19,134 nucleotides of DNA. It comes from Candidatus Bipolaricaulia bacterium. GTDB taxonomy: Bacteria > Bipolaricaulota > Bipolaricaulia > JBHIAT01. The stretch spans positions 1 through 19,134 of the forward strand of contig JBHIAT010000060.1 of NCBI GenBank assembly GCA_046758705.1, in the 5' to 3' direction. This document shows positions 7,554 to 19,134 of this stretch, piece by piece. The position numbers and the translations under genes were made by a program. The first letter of the stretch is position 1; the number at the start of each line of letters is the position of its first letter. Below the pieces are notes generated by a model, which saw only the letters and a program-made list of their open reading frames with translations, had not been told where the DNA came from and did no database searches.

Positions 7554-9281
7554 ATGTCTAAAGCAGTGGGCATTGATCTGGGGACCACCAACTCGGTAGC
7601 GGCTGTCATAGAGAACGGTCGGCCCATCGTGATACCCAACGCGGAAGGTGGGCGACTCACTCCATCGGTGGTTGCGTTTCAACGGGACGGAGCCCGATTG
7701 GCCGGACAGTTAGCAAAAAGACAGGCCGCAGCGAACCCAGAGCATACCATCTTTTCGATCAAGCGGCAGATGGGGGACGGCTGGAAGATGAGAGTTGATG
7801 GGGTCGCCTATACCCCCGAGAAGATCTCCAGTCTGATCTTGGGAAAGATCAAAGCCGATGTAGAAAGCTATTTGGGCGAGCGGGTGGAGCAGGCCGTGAT
7901 TACCGTGCCGGCTTACTTCAACGACCACCAGCGTCGGGCGACCCAAGCTGCGGCCAGAATCGCCGGGCTGGAGGTGCTCAGAATCATCAACGAGCCCACC
8001 GCCGCCGCGTTGTCGTATGGATTGCATCGGCAAAGGGTTCATAAGATCCTGGTTTGGGACCTGGGGGGCGGCACGTTTGACGTCTCCATCTTAGCATTGA
8101 GTGAAGGGTTTTTTAGAGTGGTGGCCGTCAATGGGAATACCCGACTGGGGGGAGATGACTGGGATCAGCGGATCACGCAGTATTTGGTCGATAAGCTCGC
8201 CCATGAGCACGGGATTGAGCTGCGGGAGGACAAGATAGCTTATCAAAGGCTGAAACAGGCCGCAGAGACGGCCAAGATTGAGCTATCCAGCCAATCGGTC
8301 ACCGATGTGAGGTTGCCGTTTATCAGCGACACCGACACTCACCCCCTGAATATCACCTTAACCCGGGAGCAAGTTGAGGCGTTAACGGAAGACCTCCTGG
8401 AGAAGATGGTCGCTCCCACCCGACAAGCGCTTGCCGATGCCGAACTGAAATCTGAAGATATCGATCGCGTCGTTTTAGTCGGCGGAGCCACCCGGATCCC
8501 CGCCGTCCAAGCGTTGGCCAAAGAACTTTTGGGACAAGAACCCTATAAGGAGATTGACCCCGATCAGGTCGTAGCCGTAGGCGCAGCGATTCAGGCGGGT
8601 ATTCTGACCGGCGAAGTCAAAGATGTGATCCTGGTCGATGTGACCCCATTATCTTTGGGCATTGAGACCCGAGGTGGAATCTTCGCGAAAATCATCGGCA
8701 GGAATACGACCATTCCCGTCTCCCGAGGACAGATATTTACCAACGCCTACGATGATCAGGCTGAAATAGATGTCCATGTCCTGCAAGGGGAGAGGGAGTT
8801 AGCTGAGTATAATATGAGTTTAGGCAAATTTCAGCTGGATATTCCTCCATTAGAACGGGGAAAAGCAAGAATTGAGGTGAACTTTAACATCGACGTCGAC
8901 GGCATTATCCATGTGACCGCCCGTGATCTCCATACCGATCATGAGAAAAGGGTCATCATCGATTCTCCTTCTGGATTATCAGAGGAGGAGATCGAGGCGA
9001 TGGTGAAGGAAGCCCGCCAACACGCCCAACAGGATGAACATAAGCGAAGGGAGATAGAGGTAAAGATTCGTGCGGATAACGCAATCCATGTAGCAGAAGG
9101 GATAATCGAGGAGGTAACGGACGAATCCCAACGGAAGGAACTGCAACAGGCCATATTAAGAACAAAAGATGCCCTTTCCGGTGAAGATAGCGACATGATC
9201 AACCTAAGAACTGAGGAGTTGGGTGAGCTCATTGAGAATTGGGAACGCCAATGCCAACAGACCTCCCTTACTAGAGGATGA
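7554..9281 (+). CDS. dnaK: Hsp70/DnaK-family chaperone, gas-vesicle-cluster paralog
   Basis: GIDLGTTNS, AVITVPAYFND, DLGGGTFDVS, VVLVGGATRIP and linker DVILVDVTPLSLGIET. 575 aa with a short C-terminus. No grpE, dnaJ or hrcA adjacent. Confidence 0.93.
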   Translation: MSKAVGIDLGTTNSVAAVIENGRPIVIPNAEGGRLTPSVVAFQRDGARLAGQLAKRQAAANPEHTIFSIKRQMGDGWKMRVDGVAYTPEKISSLILGKIKADVESYLGERVEQAVITVPAYFNDHQRRATQAAARIAGLEVLRIINEPTAAALSYGLHRQRVHKILVWDLGGGTFDVSILALSEGFFRVVAVNGNTRLGGDDWDQRITQYLVDKLAHEHGIELREDKIAYQRLKQAAETAKIELSSQSVTDVRLPFISDTDTHPLNITLTREQVEALTEDLLEKMVAPTRQALADAELKSEDIDRVVLVGGATRIPAVQALAKELLGQEPYKEIDPDQVVAVGAAIQAGILTGEVKDVILVDVTPLSLGIETRGGIFAKIIGRNTTIPVSRGQIFTNAYDDQAEIDVHVLQGERELAEYNMSLGKFQLDIPPLERGKARIEVNFNIDVDGIIHVTARDLHTDHEKRVIIDSPSGLSEEEIEAMVKEARQHAQQDEHKRREIEVKIRADNAIHVAEGIIEEVTDESQRKELQQAILRTKDALSGEDSDMINLRTEELGELIENWERQCQQTSLTRG

Positions 9282-10167
9282 ACCGGTCATCTTATCCGGT
9301 CAGGGGGTCTGCAAAGATAATGGTTCACGATCGGGCTGGAGACCTGGGCATCTTTATCTGACCCAGAAAAGATTGCTCCTGTTTCAACCGGCAGGGATGA
9401 TATTTGAAACCCTGCTAGATAACGTTACGGATATCTCAGTGGGGAAAAAACAGTTTGTCCTGACGAAGAAGCCAGCCATTTGCATATCCTATAAGCATCC
9501 GAGAAGTGAAACAAGCTCAAAGATCTGGATCATCGCAGACGACCTTAACACCTGGAAGAGAGAGATATATGGAAGAACGCTGTTAACGATTGATGAGCAG
9601 GCGGTCGATCGAATCGTTCAACAGTTGGATCAAGACAGCCAGGAGATACTCTGGTATTGTTGGAGAAACGGACACGCGACGATCGATGAATTATCCGAAG
9701 TGATGAAAGCCCTGGCTCACATGGATCTCCTCCATAAGATCAAGAAGGTGATCAACCCGACCGCGGAGCGGACGATCGGAAGTCCGATATTGACATTTGA
9801 ACGATCCAGAGTTGATCCGGTGACCGGGGAGAAGATCTTATTCGGTTGGTGGCTTATGGGCAAAAAGTGTCTGGAGGGAAGGGAGCCGATCCTGGATATC
9901 TTCGACGAGGAAGATCATCTCACGGTGATCCTGGAGCTACTGGATGTCCAGGTCCAGGAAGAGGAGATCCTGGTGAGAGCGGGAGATGATGAGCTGACCG
10001 TATCGGCTAGAGGGTACCATAAGAAATTTTCTCTGCCGGCAGAGGTCCACAGTGAGGTATTCACCCAAAGGTGCAACAATAACATGTTACAGATCAAACT
10101 GAACAAGACAAATGGGTCGGGACGGGACAGCGTTCACCGTTTCAGCGGACGTAGATCCCTTCCCTGA
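9223..10167 (+). CDS. multi-domain protein: GRAM/PH-like N-terminus, wHTH-like middle, Hsp20/alpha-crystallin C-terminus
   Basis: WRPGHLYLTQKRLLLF (GRAM/PH-like), SQEILWYCWRNGHATIDELSEVM (HTH-like) and EPILDIFDEEDHLTVILEL...FSLP...NNNMLQIKLNK (ACD). Start is uncertain and overlaps the dnaK 3' end. Confidence 0.72.
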   Translation: MSSLRIGNANANRPPLLEDEPVILSGQGVCKDNGSRSGWRPGHLYLTQKRLLLFQPAGMIFETLLDNVTDISVGKKQFVLTKKPAICISYKHPRSETSSKIWIIADDLNTWKREIYGRTLLTIDEQAVDRIVQQLDQDSQEILWYCWRNGHATIDELSEVMKALAHMDLLHKIKKVINPTAERTIGSPILTFERSRVDPVTGEKILFGWWLMGKKCLEGREPILDIFDEEDHLTVILELLDVQVQEEEILVRAGDDELTVSARGYHKKFSLPAEVHSEVFTQRCNNNMLQIKLNKTNGSGRDSVHRFSGRRSLP

Positions 10168-10256
10168 GTCACGAAGTGGATGTTCTGGGTGAACGCCTGT
10201 CCTTCATCCAGACAGGGATGGAGGCTAAACTTTTGAGGCTGGCAAAGGAAGAGTAA
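10114..10256 (+). repeat. ~130-bp repeated element, copy 1 (upstream of an Hsp20/GvpH-like gene)
   Basis: 10125-10256 aligns with 15301-15433 with 19 substitutions and one 1-nt indel. Confidence 0.9.
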
Positions 10257-10259
10257 GCA

Positions 10260-10796
10260 ATGGGAGGTGAAGAGATGACCGGTAAACGGGAAGGAGAAGA
10301 GAAGAAAGCACCTGAGTTCGATATCGGCATTGACCTGGGGGGGCTGTTCGGGGGAATCTTCAAAGGGATCAATGATCTGGCCGACTTGGCCGCAGAGCTG
10401 GCCGAAAAAGGGGAGGTGGTCCGAGAGGGAGCGTTCGACTTCGAGGATCGTAAAGGGAGGTTCGGCTTCGCCATGAAGACCGGGGTCGCGGACGACACGG
10501 AATTTAGAGTCCGCACATCCGAAAGGAAAAAAACCGGTAAGCGCGAGGAGATCCGCGAACCCCTCATCGACATGTTTGAGGAGGAGGACGAGACGGTGAT
10601 CTACGTCGAACTCCCCGGGGTCGAGCAGCAGGATATCAAGACCGAACTGAAACAAGGTCGCTTGCACATAGAAGCTGAGCACAGAGGGATTAAATACAAA
10701 AAGGAGATAGAGCTGTCTGAGCGTGCCAAAGGCGAGCCAAGCTACGAATACAAGAACGGCATCTTGAAGGTCCGGTTCGCTCAGTCAGAGAGATGA
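10260..10796 (+). CDS. Hsp20/alpha-crystallin family protein, GvpH-like
   Basis: LGGLFGGIF N-terminus and REPLIDMFEEEDETVIYVELPGVE...YKNGILKVRF alpha-crystallin domain. Confidence 0.85.
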   Translation: MGGEEMTGKREGEEKKAPEFDIGIDLGGLFGGIFKGINDLADLAAELAEKGEVVREGAFDFEDRKGRFGFAMKTGVADDTEFRVRTSERKKTGKREEIREPLIDMFEEEDETVIYVELPGVEQQDIKTELKQGRLHIEAEHRGIKYKKEIELSERAKGEPSYEYKNGILKVRFAQSER

Positions 10797-10820
10797 AACC
10801 GCGAATACTGGCGGTGAGGA

Positions 10821-10877
10821 ATGCTCTATCGGGTGGATAAGAGATTGCCTGGGGATATCAAGGTCATTTATCTTTCA
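10821..10877 (+). pseudogene. remnant of the 3' end of the 17153-17692 hypothetical gene
   Basis: 51/57 nt identical to 17636-17692. Translates MLYRVDKRLPGDIKVIYL versus VLHRVDKRLPGDIKVTHL. Confidence 0.85.
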
Positions 10878-11282
10878 AGCCTCCGTGGTCCGTTTCAAAA
10901 GCGCTATGGAAAAGATTCCGTTCTTCGAGGTGATCTTCGGCCGACCTGTCACCGCGCATGGAAGCTCAACACATTGTCTGAGGCGCAACGGGACACTAAG
11001 CCGGACCATATTCCTGTCTACATCGACTTTCAAAGCTGATTTTTCGATATACATCGGAAATACTGCCAATATTTTTATGGTATTTCGCTCTTCAAACACA
11101 TTGATCAGCGATTCTCTCCTGTTTACCTGAATCTGATCGCGTTTCCCATTGCTCTTTACCCACTGCTTTGGCCACCCGTTGGCTGTGGTGATCGGGTGAC
11201 TTCTTCTGGCGTTACGAGGCCGAGTCCTGACTGCCTTAGACCTTCCCGTTACTCCTCCTAAAGTACGAATCCTGATAATCAT
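10875..11282 (-). CDS. divergent, basic Hsp20/alpha-crystallin (GvpH-like) protein
   Basis: RESLINVFEERNTIKILAVFP...VELPCAVTGRPKITSKNGIFSIAL parallels the other ACD paralogs. ATG 11282 follows GAGGAGGGG on the - strand. Confidence 0.75.
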   Translation of the reverse strand: MIIRIRTLGGVTGRSKAVRTRPRNARRSHPITTANGWPKQWVKSNGKRDQIQVNRRESLINVFEERNTIKILAVFPMYIEKSALKVDVDRNMVRLSVPLRLRQCVELPCAVTGRPKITSKNGIFSIALLKRTTEA

Positions 11283-11305
11283 CGCGACCCCTCCTCGGGC
11301 ATCCA

Positions 11306-11371
11306 AGACATCCCGAATGTCCTACAGAGATATCCTAAATGACCAATCAGAATGGCTCAAATGTCCTACTA
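11306..11371. promoter_or_regulatory. three phased 22-bp units, candidate operator array
   Basis: AATGTCCTAC at 11316, AATGACCAAT at 11338 and AATGTCCTAC at 11360. Unit 1 contains the palindrome GACAT-N5-ATGTC. Confidence 0.55.
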
Positions 11372-11487
11372 AGGTTATTTTACCCAGGATTCATCGTCAA
11401 GGGGTATGAGAAGGGAACTTTGTCCCATTGTTGCCTTGAGCTTATATCTCACCAGATTAACCATCCCCTAAGGGCATGAACCGGATT

Positions 11488-11597
11488 GGGTCGAAACAAC
11501 AGTCACCTTTTCAACGAACGTAGATCCCTTCCTGGGTTAACGCATGTCCTTCATCCCGGGAGAGATGGAGACTAAAATCCTGAGGGTGGCAATAGAG
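11488..11597 (+). repeat. ~130-bp repeated element, copy 2 (internal ~22-bp deletion)
   Basis: TCACCTTTTCAACGAACGTAGATCCCTTCC...TGTCCTTCATCC...GATGGAGACTAAAATCCTGAGGGTGGCAA matches copies 1 and 3. Confidence 0.85.
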
Positions 11598-11639
11598 ACC
11601 GAGTTGCCCAGCTACTCGGGATCCTCCTTCTTAGAGGCT

Positions 11640-11807
11640 GACCGGCTGCATCCCGATCATAACCCCGAGAATCTGGAGGCCGAGGCCCACATGGCCGCGC
11701 TGACCCGGGCCTATCGGCTCCTCACCGCCTACGCCGAAAGCCAGGCGCTGACAAACGCCGACGTGCATTGTGACTTCAGCCAGGAGGTGCCAGTCCAAGC
11801 CAAATGA
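11640..11807 (+). pseudogene. J-domain C-terminal fragment, probable remnant of a second GvpL/F-J fusion
   Basis: RLHPDHNPENLEAEAHMAALTRAYRLL = HPD loop plus helix III only. The N-terminus of ORF 11544-11807 derives from the repeat element. Confidence 0.7.
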
Positions 11808-12676
11808 TGCAGGCTATCATGTACCAGAACCAGAACGACCGCGAACACGCTTACTACGTCTACGCCGTCGCCCAATCCCAGGACAGCCGGGAGCCTGGCC
11901 CCTTGCCGGCCGAGGGCATCGTCCCGCAGGTTTCGGTCTCTACTCTGACCTACCGGGACCTGCTCGCCGTCGTTAGCCCCGTTCCCTTGGCGGAGTTCGG
12001 CCCGCTGGCTCTAGAGGATCACCTACAGGATGCGGACTGGGCCCAAGCCCGGGTACTGGCCCACCAGCAGGTCCTGGCGGCGCTCCTCGATGGCTACACC
12101 CTGGTTCCCTTCAAGTTCTGCACTCTCTACCACAGCTGGGTGCGGGTACGGGAGATGCTGGCCTGGCACTATGAGGCTCTGAACCAGGCCTTGCAGCGCC
12201 TGAAAGGAGCTACCGAGTGGGGCGTCAAGCTCTACTGCGACCGGCGGGCGCTGATGGAATGGGTGCGGAAGGACAGCGGGGTACTCCAATCGCAGCGGGA
12301 GGCGATCGCTCAGGCATCAGCGGGAGTCGGCTATTTTCTGCGCAAGAAGTTAGAGCAGGAAGCAGAGGAAGAGGTTGAGCGGGTGATGGATGTCTGCGTA
12401 AACGAGAGCCACTGGCATTTGGCCGACTGTGCCCGGGAAGCGGTCACCAATCCAGTCCAGCCTCCGACGGTGCACGGACACAAGGCCGAGATGGTCCTCA
12501 ACAGCGCCTATCTGGTGGACGAGATCGACCTGGAGGCGTTTCGGAGGACCCTGGCGATCCTGGAGAGGAGCTATGCCCCCCAGTTCCGGTACGAACTAAC
12601 GGGCCCCTGGCCCCCTTACAACTTCGCCACCCTAGAGCTAGAGGAGGTTACCGATGAGTCCAGCCCGGTGGAATGA
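11804..12676 (+). CDS. gvpL: GvpL/GvpF-family gas vesicle protein (second-cluster fragment)
   Basis: YYVYAVA, AHQQVL, LVPFKFCTLY, EWGVKLY, MVLNSAYLVD and TGPWPPYNF motifs. Confidence 0.9.
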   Translation: MMQAIMYQNQNDREHAYYVYAVAQSQDSREPGPLPAEGIVPQVSVSTLTYRDLLAVVSPVPLAEFGPLALEDHLQDADWAQARVLAHQQVLAALLDGYTLVPFKFCTLYHSWVRVREMLAWHYEALNQALQRLKGATEWGVKLYCDRRALMEWVRKDSGVLQSQREAIAQASAGVGYFLRKKLEQEAEEEVERVMDVCVNESHWHLADCAREAVTNPVQPPTVHGHKAEMVLNSAYLVDEIDLEAFRRTLAILERSYAPQFRYELTGPWPPYNFATLELEEVTDESSPVE

Positions 12677-12881
12677 GAATGGACGCGATGTCGCCCTGGT
12701 GGAGCTCCTGGACCGCGCCCTGGACAAAGGGGTGATCCTCTGGGGAGACATCATCCTGTCCGTGGCCGACGTGGACCTGATTTACGTGGGTCTGAAGGTG
12801 CTGTTGAGCTCGGTGGAGACGGCTGAGCGGATGCGGAGCGCAGTGGCTCAACCGACACTAGAGCTGGAGCGTAAACCATGA
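12654..12881 (+). CDS. GvpA/J/S-family small gas vesicle protein (GvpS-like)
   Basis: VALVELLDRALDKGVILWGDIILSVADVDLIYVGLKVLLSSVETA resembles bacterial GvpS/GvpJ. Confidence 0.85.
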   Translation: MSPARWNENGRDVALVELLDRALDKGVILWGDIILSVADVDLIYVGLKVLLSSVETAERMRSAVAQPTLELERKP

Positions 12882-13058
12882 TGTATCTATATGCCATCAC
12901 CGACCGACCCGAGGCACCCGTGCCTGCCGGGCCCAGCCTGGAGGAAGCTTCCCCCCTCAGCCTCTCCTACCGGGGCATCGCTGCCGTGGTCAGTCCCCTC
13001 ATCATGGCCGAAGTGCCGCTGACGGCGGTTAACCTGTGGCGTCATGAGGCGGTTGTGA
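12878..13058 (+). pseudogene. truncated GvpL/GvpF-family gene (N-terminal ~60 codons)
   Basis: MYLYAITD...GIAAVVSP...NLWRHEAVV is a GvpL/F N-terminus. Homology stops abruptly and the ORF runs on into AT-richer sequence to 13237. Confidence 0.8.
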
Positions 13059-13230
13059 GGGTGCCAGGCAGATCGGTGCGAAAATATATGATTTGGTCAA
13101 CTGTCCAATTCAATGTTCTCTTTTCCTATCTCCCTAATGTCTCAAAAGGAGAAAAATCAGACACTACAGTAAAAACAGCAGTCCCTTTGATCCTTCTGAA
13201 ATCCCCTAGGAGCGGGAATCAAGTTTGCCA

Positions 13231-13262
13231 AAACTAGACAATATGTATGAATTGTCTAGTTT
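13231..13262. repeat. perfect 12-bp inverted repeat
   Basis: AAACTAGACAAT-atgtatga-ATTGTCTAGTTT. Confidence 0.9.
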
Positions 13263-13411
13263 CCAGGGTTTGTTGAATAATTGACTCTGGCAGTTGGTCA
13301 GGTGCAGCGAGTGGTTAGCCCGCCTTCTGCTCTATCTGCATAGGGTGTGAGCAACAGCAACACCCTCTGAGATTCAACCCCCGTTGCGACAACCTCAAAA
13401 CTGTCTGATCC

Positions 13412-13448
13412 TTTTTGGCTTATACCTGGTGTGGGTGTAAGCCAAAAA
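13412..13448. repeat. 15-bp inverted repeat (one G-T pair)
   Basis: TTTTTGGCTTATACC-tggtgtg-GGTGTAAGCCAAAAA. Confidence 0.9.
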
Positions 13449-13590
13449 AGTCACGGGGATGGCCCGACAAGCCCGTCAGGACCCCGATCCGGTCTATGTC
13501 CAGGGTGCCCGAAACCGTTGAAGGGCAATAGAAAGCCGCTCAGAACACGCTACATCCTGCATGGGCAGGGTGATTTGTAAAGGGGGAATA

Positions 13591-14073
13591 CTAAAAAGCC
13601 AACGTGAAGAAGCCACCAGGCCCGTTATAGATCAACACACAATGCGAGAGCACGTCACGGCCTACCAACACAACGATATCTTGACCCCCAGTACTTTGCC
13701 CTTTGAGATCCACACCCACTACGGAACTGAACTCGGTTTCCAAGGCCACCCCCGGGAAGCGGAATTTTGCAGGATAGAGATTGTGTTGACCTAGCCCGCG
13801 AGCGCTTCCTATGGTGGTTACGCCGATGGGACTAACCCCTAGGCTCTCGATAGCTTGCACATCGACGCAACTCCTCGACGCTCCCGTGTCAATGAGTGCC
13901 AAGCCGGACACTGGTGCAGGAATTGGTTGGTCTTGTTCAGTCAGGTATTGGGCAAGTACTGAGGGAACAGAAACCTCGACGTTTAGGAGGGGACCTATTT
14001 GCCTCAGGACCTTGGGATCAACCTTGACAGGCCCTTGTTGAGGCAATTGAAAGAATCGGCTATAAACGGGCAT
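13591..14073 (-). CDS. retropepsin-like (clan AA) aspartyl protease
   Basis: Catalytic ALIDTGASRSCV and C-terminal VLVGRDVLSHCVLIYNG motif. Confidence 0.88.
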   Translation of the reverse strand: MPVYSRFFQLPQQGPVKVDPKVLRQIGPLLNVEVSVPSVLAQYLTEQDQPIPAPVSGLALIDTGASRSCVDVQAIESLGVSPIGVTTIGSARGLGQHNLYPAKFRFPGVALETEFSSVVGVDLKGQSTGGQDIVVLVGRDVLSHCVLIYNGPGGFFTLAF

Positions 14074-14314
14074 TGATCAACCCCAGCGTTAATGTAGGGA
14101 TGTAATCAACCTCTTCCGTTTCATCCTTGACAACCAGCTTGATAAGAAAGGGTTGGTTCCCAAGCTCCCTGATCCCCGCTTCATAGGCTTCAGACTCCGT
14201 GGTAAAGGCCCCTTTCAGGGAGTCATCCTTGATCAAAACAAATTGATTCTCGTAATGCTCTACCAACTCTTCCTTATGAGCATTGTAATATTCAAGTTCC
14301 TTTTCCAAGGCCAT
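14060..14314 (-). CDS. DUF5678-like small protein
   Basis: ELEYYNAHKEELVEHYENQFVLIKDDSLKGAFTTESEAYEAG...PFLIKLV pattern. Overlaps the protease start by 14 nt. RBS GAGGGAG. Confidence 0.78.
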   Translation of the reverse strand: MALEKELEYYNAHKEELVEHYENQFVLIKDDSLKGAFTTESEAYEAGIRELGNQPFLIKLVVKDETEEVDYIPTLTLGLINARL

Positions 14315-14339
14315 TCCATTCTCTCCCTCTGTTCGTCTT

Positions 14340-14368
14340 AATGTAACATATTGATATAAAGATGTCAA
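14340..14368 (-). promoter_or_regulatory. sigma70-type promoter for the DUF5678/protease pair
   Basis: On the - strand: TTGACA (14368-14363), 17 nt, TGn-TACATT (14345-14340), about 26 nt upstream of the ATG. Confidence 0.75.
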
Positions 14369-14503
14369 TTGCAAAGACCCTCTGTCTACTATGGGTAGGG
14401 TGATCCGTCAATTTCCCCGTCTGAACCAGCGCCTGTTCGCCCTCCTCAAGTGATGCACAGCTTGCGCTTGAGGCCATAGGGGAGATTGCAAGCCGCGTTC
14501 GCG

Positions 14504-15166
14504 TTAGAAGCGGATCATCACTCCCCCCTTGGCTGTCATGCCCGGTTCCATATCCCCCGGGAACGGTAGATGGCCCAAGGGCACCCTAAAGCCGATTCCA
14601 CCAAATAAGGTGAAGATGCGGAAGTTCAGATGGAGACCCGCTGAACCGACCAATGAGAGTGTGTATGGGGTTCGCTCAAACATATCCCAGGTCCCTCCCC
14701 TGATGAGATCCTCACTCGTGCCTTCTCCCATGGCAATTACAACTCCGACTCCAGCACCGCCGTAGAACCGCACGTTCCCCCGACCGATATAGTACAGTAA
14801 CAATCCGTCGATGGGGATCATCGTGAGTGCATTGATCGTGTCTCTTCCCTCTATCTCACCCGTGTCAGGATTCACCCACTCCGACACAAACGTCTCCCCG
14901 TTCAGCACATCCGCGTACCCGACAGTCAATCGCAGATGTACGGTAGGGCGGAGCGACGTCTGGACCAGCAGGCCGGGAAGGATCTCTTCCACCCGTTTAT
15001 CTTTTTCTGGACCACCACCCCAAAAGATGAAGCTGAACATGCCCGCCTCGCCACCGATATACGATTCGGCCAATCCTCTTTCCTGAGCCTGGGCTACATC
15101 GTTAAGCCCAACCAGAACTCCCAATAAGACTAAAACACCTGCCACTATCACTATCCCTTTCTTCAT
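14504..15166 (-). CDS. putative outer-membrane beta-barrel protein
   Basis: Signal peptide MKKGIVIV...AQA, alternating amphipathic strands (FYGGAGVGV, GLHLNF, LFGGIGFRV) and a C-terminal Phe (GGVMIRF). RBS GAGGTG before ATG 15166. Confidence 0.72.
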   Translation of the reverse strand: MKKGIVIVAGVLVLLGVLVGLNDVAQAQERGLAESYIGGEAGMFSFIFWGGGPEKDKRVEEILPGLLVQTSLRPTVHLRLTVGYADVLNGETFVSEWVNPDTGEIEGRDTINALTMIPIDGLLLYYIGRGNVRFYGGAGVGVVIAMGEGTSEDLIRGGTWDMFERTPYTLSLVGSAGLHLNFRIFTLFGGIGFRVPLGHLPFPGDMEPGMTAKGGVMIRF

Positions 15167-15296
15167 CAAACTCACCTCTTCAAGAATGTTCAGTCAGTTA
15201 TATCGGATCACAGTCGCCAAAGGAGATCAAGCGCCTTTGTCTACTCCGGAGAGGTATTTTGTCCTCCAGCGTGTTCTCAGCGCCCTGTTCCGGTTT

Positions 15297-15433
15297 GTCG
15301 GGACAACGCTCACCTTTTCAGCGAACGTAGGTCCCGTCTCTCAGTCACGAAGTGGATGTTCTAGGTGAACACATGTCCTTCTATCCAGAGAGGAATGGAG
15401 ACTAGACTCTTGAGGATGGCAAAGGAGGGGTAA
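15297..15433 (+). repeat. ~130-bp repeated element, copy 3 (upstream of an Hsp20/GvpH-like gene)
   Basis: Full-length match to copy 1 at 10125-10256. Confidence 0.9.
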
Positions 15434-15442
15434 GGAGTCAAT

Positions 15443-16030
15443 ATGCCTAAAAGGGCTGGGAAAGAACCCAAGTCTGAGATTGCCGAGGAATTCTTTAAGG
15501 AGCTGGGATTAGGGGGTTTGATCGACAGGTTAAAGAGATCCGAAGTCTTCAGGAAGCGGATGGAGGAAGTCAATCGCCAGATCGAGGAGAACCTGGAGCG
15601 AGGGGTTGAGGGTGGGCAGGTCCGCCCACGGGTCAGATACGGCTTTTCGATGAGAACGCTGACGAGCCGCCCTTCCCAGGGTCTAAAGGAACGCTGGACG
15701 CCGAGAGGCAGGCAGGGGAGGGAGAAGCAACCGCAGGAACCCGAGCCGTTTGTCGAAACCTTCGATGAGGGCGGTTTTATTGACGTGATCGCCACCTTCC
15801 CCGGAGTCGAGGAGGAGCAACAGCTTAAGGTGGAAGTGAAGGAGAACGTGTTGCTGTTATCCGCCGGTTCTTATCGTGAGGAGATCGAGCTGCCGGGTCC
15901 GGTGAGGGGTAAGCCCCAGGTGCGGTTCAAAAACGGGGTGTTCGGCATCAAGCTGGAAAAGCAGGGTCAAGATAACGGTCGAGATCGACGAAAAGAACTA
16001 GAAACGGGGCCTGGGCCTGGCGAGACTTAA
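15443..16030 (+). CDS. Hsp20/alpha-crystallin family protein, GvpH-like
   Basis: LGLGGLID...YGFSMRTL...EPFVETFDEGGFIDVIATFPGVE...IELPGPV...FKNGVFGIKLEK. RBS AAGGAG. Confidence 0.85.
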   Translation: MPKRAGKEPKSEIAEEFFKELGLGGLIDRLKRSEVFRKRMEEVNRQIEENLERGVEGGQVRPRVRYGFSMRTLTSRPSQGLKERWTPRGRQGREKQPQEPEPFVETFDEGGFIDVIATFPGVEEEQQLKVEVKENVLLLSAGSYREEIELPGPVRGKPQVRFKNGVFGIKLEKQGQDNGRDRRKELETGPGPGET

Positions 16031-16164
16031 TAGACCGTTGACCGGATAAGACAGGATATAAGTCCTGGATTAATGGGACTACTGGAATTTAAGTATAAGT
16101 CACCGCTCACAAAGGCCAACAACGGGCTTCTCAGAACATGCTGAGAAACTGGAGGAGGGGACGG

Positions 16165-16383
16165 ATGCACGCTGAGGTCTGGTTGTTGTGGGAAACCCCG
16201 ATGGGGACGAAGCAGGATGTGCGGATCGGTACGGTCGAGGGCTGTAGAAAGATTGACCTGCTCGGAAAAGCCCGGGAGCTGGTCCGCAAGTCGGAGGCGT
16301 CCCAGGAGGAATACCCGGACGCGGTGAAGTTGATCGAACTGAGAGGCGATGGCATAGGTGACCCGAGAACGTTTTTCCCATGA
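16165..16383 (+). CDS. hypothetical protein (72 aa)
   Basis: Strong RBS GGAGGAGG before ATG 16165 and protein-like composition. No recognised motif. Confidence 0.55.
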   Translation: MHAEVWLLWETPMGTKQDVRIGTVEGCRKIDLLGKARELVRKSEASQEEYPDAVKLIELRGDGIGDPRTFFP

Positions 16384-16401
16384 GGAGATGGTTAATCCCT
16401 C

Positions 16402-16437
16402 GCTACGTTCACTGAAAAGGTGAGCGTTGACCCGACC
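16402..16437 (-). repeat. partial inverted copy 4 of the repeated element (5' ~36 bp)
   Basis: Reverse complement GGGTCGGGTCAACGCTCACCTTTTCAGTGAACGTAG matches the start of copies 1-3. Confidence 0.85.
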
Positions 16438-16559
16438 CGCCTGCCTGTCCGTTCCTCGCTGGCACTTTGACACCTCCCGAGCAGATGGAGTGGAGATCTG
16501 CGGGGGACCTCTGTCCTGTTATTCCTGAGGGATGACGGTTAAGCTGAAGCTGAAAGGAA

Positions 16560-17093
16560 GTGAGATCCATGTTGATGTTGAGCATCGCAACCAGAGGCAG
16601 GGCAATCATCGCTGTGTTCACGGTCTTGGGGCTCGTATCGCTCGCCCTGTACGCCGTCCCGTTCGGGGGATACGCCGGCGAAGAAGCTGAGGTCGAACAC
16701 CTGTACTTCAACAACTTCGCCGAACTGCCCTCCGTGTTTCAGTATATGTGGGACAGGGTGCAGAATGAGGGATGGACATGGCTCGTCTACTTCCATCGTG
16801 AACTCAACGGGTATACGGCCGGGGAGGAGTCCTATGAATTCGATCACGCCGTTCACTACGCGGTCTCTTACACGTTCTTCTCACCACAACCCTACGGAGT
16901 CTCGGTCGTCTACATTATCGACGTCACCGGTCGGGTATTGCTCGCCTTATTAGGGGAGAACTATAACCCATCGGACCCTACGGAGTACGATCTCACCTAT
17001 TGGGATCATGAGCGCAAACAGTTGTTGAAAATCCACGTAGGGAGCTACGATCACCCGGATCCACTGTTCACCTCCCGCACAACGCCTTCCTGA
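16560..17093 (+). CDS. hypothetical exported or membrane-anchored protein
   Basis: N-terminal hydrophobic segment AIIAVFTVLGLVSLALYAVPF followed by a Tyr-rich soluble domain. Start is 16560 or 16569. Confidence 0.65.
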   Translation: MRSMLMLSIATRGRAIIAVFTVLGLVSLALYAVPFGGYAGEEAEVEHLYFNNFAELPSVFQYMWDRVQNEGWTWLVYFHRELNGYTAGEESYEFDHAVHYAVSYTFFSPQPYGVSVVYIIDVTGRVLLALLGENYNPSDPTEYDLTYWDHERKQLLKIHVGSYDHPDPLFTSRTTPS

Positions 17094-17152
17094 TCGCTCT
17101 CTATTGAACAACTATACGCATCATGGGAAAATAGGACATGAGGTAGATTTGC

Positions 17153-17692
17153 ATGCGCCAGTTGATCTACGTCCCGATACTGCACACCCCGGAGGATATG
17201 GGCTCGTTAGCCGAGAGACTCAGGGAGGAATACATCGCCCGGATCGGGGAATCTGAATGGCGTCAACATCTTGAGGAGATTGACAACCTCTGGGCTCGGA
17301 TCAGGGAGAAGATCCTCGCGTTCCCGTTGGACTGGAAAACGGTCAAGGTTTATCAGGATGGATTGCCCCAATGCGGCAGGGAGCTCGAGATCACCGCAGA
17401 GTTGGCGAACACAGGGAGCAAAAACTACCAATTGGTTCTGGATCTGGTGGCAAAGGGGGCCAGGCTCATAGGGACTGAAGATCCGAACCTCCTGGTTGAG
17501 GAGTACAGTCATCTTAAGGGGAAACGGACGCAGCCCAAACACAGCCTGGATCTGCTCGTTCAGCGGGATGAATACATGGCAAACCGGATCGCTGAGACGT
17601 TGAATGAAGGTGAGACGGGTATCCTGTTCTTAGGGGTGCTCCATCGGGTGGATAAGAGATTGCCTGGAGATATCAAGGTCACTCATCTTTAA
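17153..17692 (+). CDS. hypothetical protein, TraB/TIKI/ChaN-like motif pattern
   Basis: LIYVPILH...VYQDGLP...RDEYMANRIAETL...GILFLGVLH. RBS GAGGT. The fold assignment is inference. Confidence 0.7.
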   Translation: MRQLIYVPILHTPEDMGSLAERLREEYIARIGESEWRQHLEEIDNLWARIREKILAFPLDWKTVKVYQDGLPQCGRELEITAELANTGSKNYQLVLDLVAKGARLIGTEDPNLLVEEYSHLKGKRTQPKHSLDLLVQRDEYMANRIAETLNEGETGILFLGVLHRVDKRLPGDIKVTHL

Positions 17693-17702
17693 CCCGTTAT
17701 AT

Positions 17703-19133
17703 TCAGATACTCGATCCTTTGTGCCACAGCACCTCTTCCAGCGAGGTGATGCCACTGATGACCTTATGCAAACCATCTTCGATGAGGGTGGTCATCCCAC
17801 TGTTGATCGCTTCCCGAGCGATCTCCTCATCAGAAGCCCCCTGCACGATCATATCCCGGGTCCATTCGTCGATGACGAACAGCTCGAAGATGCCGGTCCT
17901 TCCCCGGTATCCCCGGTTGCTGCACCGAGGACAGCCGACCGGACGATAGATCGTTCCGACCGGCTCGACCGCCCCGCGAAGGTGCGCTTCGAGGATCTTC
18001 CGTTCCCATTCCTCCGGTTGAACCGGCTGTTTGCAATTGCTACAGAGCTTACGGACAAGCCGCTGGGCGATCACCCCGTTCAGCGCAGCGGCCAGCAGGT
18101 AGAGCTCCACACCCATGTTGAGCAGTCGCGATACCGCCCCGAGGGCCGAATGGGTGTGAAGCGTCGAGAAGACGAGGTGGCCGGTGAGCGCGGCGCGCAT
18201 GGCCATCTGGACCGTCTGCTCGTCACGGATCTCCCCGACCATGATCACGTCTGGATCCTGCCTGAACAGGTATCGAAGTGCATGGGCGAAATCGATTTTC
18301 TTCCCCGAGTTGACTCGAGCTTGATTGACATTCTCAATCCGGTATTCCGGAGGATCCTCGATGGTGGTGATGTTGATCTTGGGGGAGCTGATCGCCTTGA
18401 GGCTGGCGGTCAGCGTGGTCGTCTTTCCGCTCCCGCTGGGTCCGGTGGCCAGGATGAGACCGGAGGGATCGTGAATCAGCTGCTGGTACTGATGGAGCGT
18501 CTCCCCTTGCAACCCGAGTTCCTCAATCGAGAAGGTGATCATGGGGTTCAGCACGCGCAAGACGATCTTCTCACCGTAGATGAACGGGAAGATCGACACG
18601 CGAAGCTCGCGCTCCTCCAGCGCGATACTGCCGTCCTGGGGAGTCTCCTTCTCAGGGATGTCGAGATCGGCCATGACCCGAACCCGGCCAACCAGTTCTT
18701 TGTGAATATCCATGGGGAATCGCGCCACTCCTTGCAGGACCCCGTCGATGCGATAACGTACCTGAAGCTGATCGGCGAGCGGTTCGATGTGGATGTCGCT
18801 GGCCTCTCGTCGCAGCGCTTCGTTGATGATCGCCTCCACGATCTGGCTGACCGGCATATCGTCGGTCACCTGGGTGAGCGGGGGAATCCTCTCCTTCCGC
18901 ACCCCGGGACGCCTGAGCCACATTCGGCCGTAAGTGGTCTCGATCTTCCGTTTGATCTCGGAGGGGGTGGAGACACGCGGCTTGATCTTCATACCCGTCT
19001 GGGACCGCAGATCATCGATGATCGTGACGTCATTGGGGTCGCCGATCGCCACCATCAGCTGGTTGCCAATCTTCTGGATCGGCATCACGATCTTGCGGCG
19101 GGCAAAATCCTTATCGACCAACGCCAGCGCTTC
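17703..19133 (-). CDS. type II/IV secretion assembly ATPase (GspE/PilB family), 5' end outside window
   Basis: ASDIHIEP, RYRIDGVL, Walker A GPSGSGKT, TIEDPPEY, RQDPDVIMVGEIRD, STLHT and tetracysteine CSNC/CPRC. The frame is open to the window edge. Confidence 0.95.
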   Translation of the reverse strand, partial: EALALVDKDFARRKIVMPIQKIGNQLMVAIGDPNDVTIIDDLRSQTGMKIKPRVSTPSEIKRKIETTYGRMWLRRPGVRKERIPPLTQVTDDMPVSQIVEAIINEALRREASDIHIEPLADQLQVRYRIDGVLQGVARFPMDIHKELVGRVRVMADLDIPEKETPQDGSIALEERELRVSIFPFIYGEKIVLRVLNPMITFSIEELGLQGETLHQYQQLIHDPSGLILATGPSGSGKTTTLTASLKAISSPKINITTIEDPPEYRIENVNQARVNSGKKIDFAHALRYLFRQDPDVIMVGEIRDEQTVQMAMRAALTGHLVFSTLHTHSALGAVSRLLNMGVELYLLAAALNGVIAQRLVRKLCSNCKQPVQPEEWERKILEAHLRGAVEPVGTIYRPVGCPRCSNRGYRGRTGIFELFVIDEWTRDMIVQGASDEEIAREAINSGMTTLIEDGLHKVISGITSLEEVLWHKGSSI

Positions 19134-19134
19134 G

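Follow-up and report, generated by a model that had tools for sequence, protein, structure and literature searches.

A two-module element repeated before gas-vesicle chaperone and type IV pilus ATPase genes in a Bipolaricaulia genome: a possible upstream control cassette

Why does one stretch of about 130 bp recur, well preserved, before genes that have themselves drifted far apart? This question is raised by contig JBHIAT010000060.1 of the Candidatus Bipolaricaulia assembly GCA_046758705.1. The whole contig (C60; 19,134 nucleotides, nt) is the window analysed here. The assembly, abbreviated G000, comprises 3.70 Mb in 319 contigs and is 93.9% complete, with a contamination estimate of 4.69%; its further contigs are cited as C55, C11, C112 and so on. 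In the window, the element stands before two small heat-shock protein (sHsp) genes of the Hsp20/GvpH-like type, sHsp1 (10260-10796, +) and sHsp3 (15443-16030, +). We tentatively read it, with a probability of roughly 45%, as a lineage-specific modular upstream control cassette that may have been copied before gas-vesicle chaperone and pilus ATPase genes.

The element consists of two separable modules, a 36-nt imperfect palindrome ending in GTAG (P) and a leader of ~95 nt (L). Copy c1 (P-L, 10114-10257, +) ends 3 nt before ATG 10260 of sHsp1, and c3 (P-L, 15297-15434, +) lies between a divergent exported-protein gene (14504-15166, -) and sHsp3, ending 9 nt before ATG 15443. Copy c2 (P-L, 11488-11597, +) has a degraded palindrome and a 22-nt deletion, and runs into an open reading frame (ORF) for a J-domain fragment. 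Copy c4 (16402-16437, -) is an inverted P alone, 19 nt after the stop codon of a small ORF (16165-16383) that lies between it and sHsp3, and ~130 nt before a gene spanning 16560/16569-17093. A first-pass annotation, made by a model from the window sequence, had placed copies at 10114-10256, 11488-11597 and 15297-15433 and an inverted 5' part at 16402-16437. All of these coordinates hold, as do the distances of 3 and 9 nt that it gave between copies 1 and 3 and the ATGs of Hsp20-like genes (ATG 10260 and ATG 15443). Its count of four occurrences in all was too low. The BLASTN copy-number check that it proposed, run genome-wide, returned two additional copies on contig C55, where c5 (P-L, 20095-20219) runs directly into the start of a pilT gene (0 nt gap) and c6 (L only, without palindrome, 12083-12176) stands 81 nt before a pilB-like gene. 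The existence of the copies is therefore confirmed and the set is extended by two, giving five L-bearing copies and one solitary P in 3.70 Mb, with five copies of P. C55 and C60 are linked by binning and possibly belong to different strains; c1-c4 and c5-c6 stand within their own contigs regardless.

A repeat search recovered direct families at 10114-10245, 11483-11592 and 15290-15422, and an inverted pair of 34 nt (15297-15330 versus 16403-16436) with 94% complementarity. Against the whole assembly, BLAST aligned c1 and c3 at 85% identity over ~136 nt (query 19-153, E 1e-37), whereas c1 matched c2 in two pieces flanking the 22-nt deletion (82% over 61 nt and 90% over 30 nt). Profile searches of the whole assembly (nhmmer --max) gave E-values of 5.6e-24 to 1.7e-37 for the full copies, and a palindrome-only profile found c4 at 3.3e-5; all remaining profile matches in the 3.70-Mb assembly had E >= 0.2. 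Pairwise identities between copies were star-like, ranging from 67 to 86%. The genes behind the element differ much more: the two Hsp20-like proteins share 29% identity over 111 aligned residues, against 85% at the nucleotide level for the element, in agreement with the earlier remark that these genes are far more diverged than the element.

The modular build of the element is established by the half copies. The similarity of c4 ceases directly after GTAG, and that of c6 begins at the corresponding (A/G)TAG, so that both share the same breakpoint. P of c1 occupies 10124-10159, with the core CGTTCAC-N7-GCGGACG at 10131-10151 and then GTAG, and P of c3 occupies 15300-15335. Across the copies 68% of 69 cells pair in P, compared to 26-36% when the partner columns are slid. 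The shared imperfect palindrome described in the first-pass annotation, weakest in copy 2, is confirmed. The central 7 nt of P are nearly invariant, and its arms show poor symmetry (68%). Among the P pairs, c3 and c4 are closest, with 32/34 nt identical (94%), against 66-84% in the other pairs. Within L, the 12-mer GTCACGAAGTGG (10168-10179, + in c1; 15344-15355 in c3) is identical in all four copies that retain this stretch (c1, c3, c5 and c6) and is deleted in c2. Further downstream, L carries an inverted repeat, which in c1 reads CCTTCATCC, loop AGACAG, GGATGGAGG (10201-10224, +; equivalent in c3 at ~15377-15401). Here 92% of 50 cells pair, versus 30-56% with slid columns, with a T-G position in all five copies; variability, in sequence as well as in length (6-8 nt), is greatest in the loop. 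In c1 the hairpin is followed by TAAACT (10226-10231), and a hexamer of the form TARAMT is present in 5/5 L copies.

At least five transcription units stand behind L or P-L, namely two GvpH/Hsp20-like genes, a unit of J-domain fragment, GvpL and GvpJ, a pilT gene and a pilB-like gene. Three of these units lie in the gas-vesicle cluster, and the other two headed genes encode type IV pilus ATPases. The orientation is uniform, with all five L copies pointing in the same direction as the next gene. The distance from the end of similarity to the gene start is 3 nt in c1, 9 nt in c3, 0 nt in c5 and 81 nt in c6, and in c2 the similarity ends inside the ORF. Three of the four P-L copies (c2, c3 and c5) sit between divergent genes, which is the usual location of promoter and operator regions. 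The idea of a portable regulatory leader put forward in the first-pass annotation is supported, as the same cassette also heads pilT and pilB-like genes, with 5/5 copies co-oriented and with paralogs that carry other upstream sequences.

These paralogs provide the most direct comparison. Since the genome is heavily paralogous, it offers a natural experiment on the cassette. The pilT gene on C55 was identified from matches to solved PilT chains; the alignment leaves three candidate starts, of which homology to the paralog on C11 favours ATG 20217. The two pilT genes are 93% identical from 2-3 nt before this ATG onward, whereas the regions upstream are unrelated, and the C11 gene carries a GGGGTATAAT box where the C55 gene has P-L. 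Likewise, homology between the C55 gene and other pilB paralogs begins no further upstream than 17-25 nt before the start codon. Their upstream regions differ, three of them holding a GGGGTATAAT or GGGGTATACT box, and the starts of six other pilB paralogs showed no significant similarity to the cassette. The 174-aa gene downstream of the solitary P (c4), of unassigned function and with a hydrophobic-looking N-terminal stretch (16554-17096, given above as 16560/16569-17093), has an 85% paralog at C112:3102-3896 that stands behind a cyclic di-GMP (c-di-GMP)-I riboswitch. That the paralogs have different upstream regions is established, and paralogs of the same families in this genome differ by whole upstream modules, of which P-L is one.

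By-eye likeness between L and other pilB/pilT upstream regions (shared words ACGTAG, GAAGTGG and GGGT) suggested a relationship that did not hold up, as 35 local alignments with 300 shuffles each gave a lowest p of ~0.04. The pilB-like gene behind c6 (C55:12257-13405) is an 89-92% nucleotide copy of the pilB gene in the window (17701-19134). A 510-nt in-frame internal deletion has removed its Walker A region, while the MshEN domain and the C-terminal part are retained; the deletion may have left the gene as a decoy without ATPase activity or as a pseudogene. A CRP/FNR-type protein is encoded next to it (C55:13428-14069). Two CheY-like receiver genes of 154 aa (-), 92% identical to each other, lie upstream of c6 and c5 (C55:11388-11868 and C55:18592-19072).

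Paralogy extends over much of the genome. At least one intragenomic BLAST match covers 15.9% of the positions, and 2.3% have five or more; many pilB, pilT, CheY-like and CRP-like paralogs share 80-93% identity. This repetitiveness reflects either unusual paralogy or a strain mix in the bin. In total, 27 matches to the c-di-GMP-I riboswitch (RF01051/RF03167), all above the Rfam cut-off and fitted best by the GGC variant model, were found genome-wide. Several of them are in tandem, and one pair (C55:19849-20037, -) lies 58 nt from P of c5 in divergent orientation. Because paralogs carry differing leaders, such as P-L or a c-di-GMP-I riboswitch, swapping of upstream control modules appears to be common in this genome. 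The cassette resembles the c-di-GMP-I riboswitch leaders in being a conserved leader of ~100 nt dispersed before paralogous genes of related function. It differs from them in matching no Rfam model, in its far smaller number of copies and in the lack of a supported fold.

How might such a cassette act? It would probably work through a protein-bound palindrome together with promoter-proximal sequences. P could be the operator of a dimeric DNA-binding regulator, and L could comprise the promoter-proximal region as well as the beginning of the transcript. Genes downstream of the cassette would in that case be switched as a group, which would tie buoyancy chaperones to pilus motors. The similarity common to the five L copies ends ~7-10 nt past TARAMT; if TARAMT is a -10 box, the shared similarity would, in our reading, end where the transcript starts. 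Between transcriptional control and control through RNA folding, we rate the former as somewhat more probable. If the cassette does serve as a control module, an uncultured vent bacterium would have placed gas vesicles and their chaperones, and with them buoyancy, on one switch with type IV pili and surface motility. Furthermore, bacteria would then be able to rewire paralogs by exchanging whole upstream modules, such as this cassette, c-di-GMP riboswitches or plain promoters, rather than by point changes, and the cassette would be a small, defined DNA or RNA part with which to seek a new regulator or RNA sensor.

Several results weigh against a promoter-operator cassette. A simple sigma-70 consensus scan found no promoter inside the element, and the GGGTAYAAT-type box that precedes the riboswitches of this genome was absent, within 2 mismatches, from the + strand of c1 and c3. 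TARAMT is a weak match, and its distance to the putative -35 box is 17, 18 and 19 nt in c1, c3 and c5, a variation that suits neither a promoter nor a fixed operator well. Weak -10-like boxes, seen by eye 11-37 nt upstream of c5, c6 and c3, would turn the element into a transcribed leader; all statements on -10 boxes rest on reading by eye and a short-motif search. Moreover, P was found nowhere else in the genome, so that no wider regulon supports an operator. Function need not extend to every copy, since c2 has decayed and stands before a broken set of genes. The highly repetitive genome (15.9%) and a bin that may mix strains (4.69% contamination) add to these reservations. Among known consensus sites compared by eye with the element (CIRCE, HAIR, CtsR, LexA, CRP/FNR, sigma-54, extracytoplasmic function (ECF) and SigB-type), none fits convincingly.

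Could the element act as RNA instead? RNA thermometers of the ROSE and fourU types precede small heat-shock genes, and ROSE is an Rfam family. The first-pass annotation had noted that the hairpin buries a GGAG(G) and had pointed to thermometers of this kind, which control sHsp genes by sequestering the Shine-Dalgarno (SD) sequence. The hairpin is real as an inverted repeat, but the buried GGAG is not the ribosome-binding site of the sHsp genes. The GGAGG of c1 (10220-10224) lies 35 nt before ATG 10260 and the GGAGA of c3 lies 41 nt before ATG 15443. Downstream of the hairpin and outside it these genes have SD sequences of their own, GGGAGGTG before the alternative sHsp1 start at ATG 10275 and AAGGAG 6 nt before ATG 15443. 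Hence, for the sHsp genes the thermometer analogy breaks down on its defining feature. The likeness to ROSE and fourU lies in a multi-copy leader of ~100 nt before sHsp genes, with a CU-rich strand that pairs with GGAG through a U-G pair. The differences lie in the position of the SD and start outside the hairpin, in the pilT and pilB-like genes that the element also heads, and in the lack of thermodynamic and covariation support. The Infernal/Rfam check asked for at first pass matched no family to the window or the element: cmscan at E <= 1 returned 0 matches for the entire window, ROSE models included, and at E <= 10 the only matches to the 211-nt element region were two eukaryotic long non-coding RNAs, which we regard as noise. 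No transfer RNA or transfer-messenger RNA was detected by ARAGORN.

Folding z-scores of the whole element ranged from -0.49 to +0.64 over five copies and were indistinguishable from those of shuffles. Only in c1 and, more weakly, in c5 is the hairpin the minimum-energy fold; c2, c3 and c6 fold alternatively, with the CU-rich box pairing with purine-rich stretches further downstream. Predicted energies of the c1 hairpin region were -17.8, -11.0 and -5.5 kcal/mol at 37, 55 and 70 °C. Covariation, likewise proposed as a check, was not significant against shuffles. With five sequences of 67-86% identity, one hairpin pair had changed on both sides, which was equalled in 223/500 shuffles. P had two such pairs (91/500 shuffles), and its covariation score, again from only five sequences, was reached by 38/500. 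There were ~6 changes in the stem, four of which break a pair, each in a different copy. One hairpin pair shifts from U-A to U-G or C-G. In all five copies, GGAG(G/A) precedes a UUG (CUG in c2) by 8-9 nt, and the UUG of c5 is in frame with pilT. An ATG within the hairpin opens a 12-codon frame in two copies, ending 3 nt (c1) and 9 nt (c3) short of the sHsp ATG; in c2 and c5 it is fused in frame. A coding fragment or leader peptide was discarded as an explanation: c6 has ATA for ATG as well as a 1-nt indel, and c3 has a 1-nt indel just upstream. The 12-codon frame likewise bears no mark of coding constraint; by our reading, the differences between c1 and c3 comprise 2 synonymous and 4 non-synonymous changes. 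A by-eye resemblance to the binding motif of CsrA/RsmA was also dismissed, as the genome contained no CsrA match, whereas 3/14 control genomes did (E. coli, B. subtilis and T. maritima).

Three explanations compete with the control cassette. We think it unlikely that L is a structured 5'-untranslated RNA, a thermosensor or ligand switch controlling translation, with P as a 5'-terminal or intercistronic stem-loop. In such a switch the CU-rich box CCUUCAUCC would act as an anti-SD, pairing either with the nearby GGAUGGAGG or with the purine-rich, SD-like stretches downstream. The inverted repeat kept in 5/5 copies, the change from U-A to U-G or C-G, the constant spacing between GGAG(G/A) and UUG/CUG with c5 in frame with pilT, and the alternative pairing in c2, c3 and c6, as a two-state switch would show, all speak for it. 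A variable loop is better tolerated by a hairpin than by a promoter spacer or a protein site, the weak boxes upstream of c5, c6 and c3 suggest that the element may be fully transcribed, and riboswitch leaders are heavily used on related genes in this genome. Conversely, the absence of an Rfam family, z-scores near zero, minimum-energy folds that vary between copies, covariation at shuffle level (hairpin and P alike), predominantly pair-breaking stem changes and the SDs and ATGs of sHsp1 and sHsp3 outside the hairpin argue against it, and homology with the C11 paralog places the pilT start not at the UUG but at the ATG 17 nt past GGAGG. Quite improbable is a bolder version, in which L is a new class of cis-regulatory RNA responding to ligand or temperature. 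It would bring the pilus retraction/extension ATPases and the gas-vesicle chaperones under one further signal, in an organism that already uses dozens of c-di-GMP riboswitches, and with P it would form a cassette moved between paralogs to rewire them. The copies could also be neutral or selfish, namely debris of illegitimate recombination, segmental duplication or gene conversion in a repeat-rich region, kept because they are harmless; this we hold to be somewhat unlikely. Such debris would fit a genome full of 80-93% identical paralogous pieces. Several copies lie exactly at rearrangement junctions, c2 being fused to a truncated J-domain ORF at a step in guanine-cytosine (GC) content, and c4 and c6 are half elements. 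Debris would also fit the star-like identities, as after a single burst, the stem substitutions that mostly break pairs, and the lack of homologues elsewhere to show selection. A 54-nt copy (10822-10875, +; 92.6% identity) of the 3' end of a TraB/PrgY-like gene (17637-17690), a gene end that adjoins the pilB stop, lies 26 nt after sHsp1 and may be a second sign of local cut-and-paste beside the cassette copies. Against debris, all five L copies are co-oriented with and abut the start of the next gene (by our arithmetic, p ~0.03 for orientation alone), the genes behind the cassette come from two systems that are linked in function, and the cassette is far better kept than those genes. Furthermore, c5 fills the whole space between the divergent riboswitch promoter and the pilT ATG, and therefore this pilT copy has no other room for expression signals. 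If the copies are debris after all, they would mark an unstable gene neighbourhood and call for caution in annotating such bins.

That P is a site of site-specific or hairpin-directed recombination, with c3 and c4 flanking an invertible segment of 1072 nt (L, sHsp3 and a small ORF) and with exchange at P/GTAG shuffling leaders, is very improbable. The high similarity of the c3/c4 pair would be expected if the two recombine, and the half elements c4 and c6 break at the same GTAG. A 15-27-nt motif GATTAACCATCYCCT... beside P in c2 (11455-11481) recurs inverted beside c4 (16371-16397), with a score above 1000 shuffles. However, no recombinase or transposase family was present among the 27 + 13 window proteins scanned (Pfam/NCBIfam), nor near c5 and c6, and the arms of P are poorly symmetric despite its conserved central 7 nt. 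Nor does P resemble anything near the six Y1 transposase genes of the genome: at E <= 10 the palindrome profile had no match on their contigs. In this, and in having five copies in all, P differs from the high-copy repetitive extragenic palindromes (REP) and their associated tyrosine transposases (RAYT). The lack of P-like sequences near the Y1 genes counts against selfish debris as well. The segment between c3 and c4 is reminiscent of the fim and hin invertible switches, since a 34-nt, 94% inverted repeat flanks 1.07 kb with a gene and its leader; unlike those switches, it has no recombinase gene nearby, and the repeat belongs to a larger cassette that is in direct orientation elsewhere. Reading of the ends of c1, c3 and c5 revealed no terminal inverted repeats or target duplications, and the 3' boundary varies between copies. 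This, the mere 5.5 copies and their non-random orientation leave the miniature inverted-repeat transposable element (MITE-like repeat) proposed in the first-pass annotation without support, and the missing terminal repeats and target duplications also speak against debris. The companion suggestion, that the element may also seed rearrangements, agrees with the location of several copies at junctions. The Correia elements of Neisseria, BOX and RUP of pneumococcus and ERIC of enterobacteria are promoter-carrying intergenic repeats present in tens to hundreds of copies and in both orientations; Correia and RUP have terminal inverted repeats, and BOX is built of separable modules. Our element is similar to these in being a short, modular, non-coding repeat beside genes that may bring expression signals. 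It differs in its low copy number, in L copies that all face the next gene and in lacking terminal repeats or target duplications on reading.

Two observations accompany these comparisons. The GATTAACCATCYCCT... motif looks like a translation start on the strand reading SD-ATG-GTT-AAT, and a simple inversion fails to explain its arrangement relative to P. The six Y1 (IS200/IS605-type) transposase matches lie on C27, C207, C257, C204, C43 and C5; an internal TGA interrupts one of them, and another is a short fragment.

Outside this genome the element was not encountered. BLAST in 60 genomes of the same class (9 families, 30 genera), the search in relatives that the first-pass annotation had called for, gave 0 matches. 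Exact scans with patterns in the IUPAC nucleotide code gave 0 matches for the L block in metagenome contigs and species-representative genome contigs, and 0 for the P block, which was scanned in the species-representative genome contigs only; these patterns demand an exact match at 19-22 positions, and diverged copies would escape. Plasmid and phage collections contained none. In 79 metagenome loci (399,217 nt) encoding 37-54% relatives of the 314-aa gene next to c1, the lowest E from nhmmer was 0.024, for a match whose strand and place were both wrong. In these loci the 314-aa relative is followed by other genes, judging by the initial 50 residues encoded in the next ORF. Among the protein relatives of this gene, the closest is 54% identical, which implies that the lineage is poorly sampled and that absence elsewhere says little. 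For the proposed cassette, the absence of homologues in other genomes means that conservation is unusable as evidence of selection, which is a further point against it.

The neighbourhood of the copies was annotated by a Pfam and NCBIfam scan of the window proteins. The window starts with a gas-vesicle cluster, in which GvpN (3-941), a small helix-turn-helix protein of 81 aa (952-1197) and a GvpL-J-domain fusion (1211-2272) are followed by GvpF, GvpG and GvpO, an ArsA-type ATPase, GvpA/J, GvpK, GvpF/L, a second GvpA/J and an Hsp70 (7554-9281). The final conserved gene of the main gas-vesicle operon encodes a 314-aa protein with a C-terminal Hsp20-like domain (9223-10167, +). Its 3' end overlaps c1, so that the 5' part of c1 supplies its final 17 codons and stop. 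An element-encoded tail of this protein was considered as proof of insertion and set aside, as homologue tails vary from 2 to ~22 residues and are uninformative.

A further Hsp20/GvpH-like gene (10875-11282, -) points away from c2 and has no L in front. It shares 31% identity with sHsp3 (BLASTP, E 4e-17); its NCBIfam Hsp20 match is sub-threshold, and Pfam gave no match at the thresholds applied. A GGGTAAAAT box lies upstream of this gene at 11377-11385 (-). The 87-aa ORF that starts inside c2 (11544-11807, +) is a truncated J-domain that retains the HPD motif and helix III, without a normal helix I/II. Behind it follow GvpL/F (11804-12676), GvpA/J (12654-12881) and a truncated GvpF (12878-13237) that is cut off near 13060. 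Together, 11544-13237 thus forms a second, partial gas-vesicle gene set. The GC content is 0.61-0.64 at 11800-12999, against 0.46-0.56 on both sides, and an unrelated block spans 13060-15175. After c4 there are two genes of unknown function and then the convergent pilB gene, which runs off the contig with its first 76 codons missing. The partial gas-vesicle set is followed by a retropepsin-like gene (13591-14073, -) and a 104-aa ORF.

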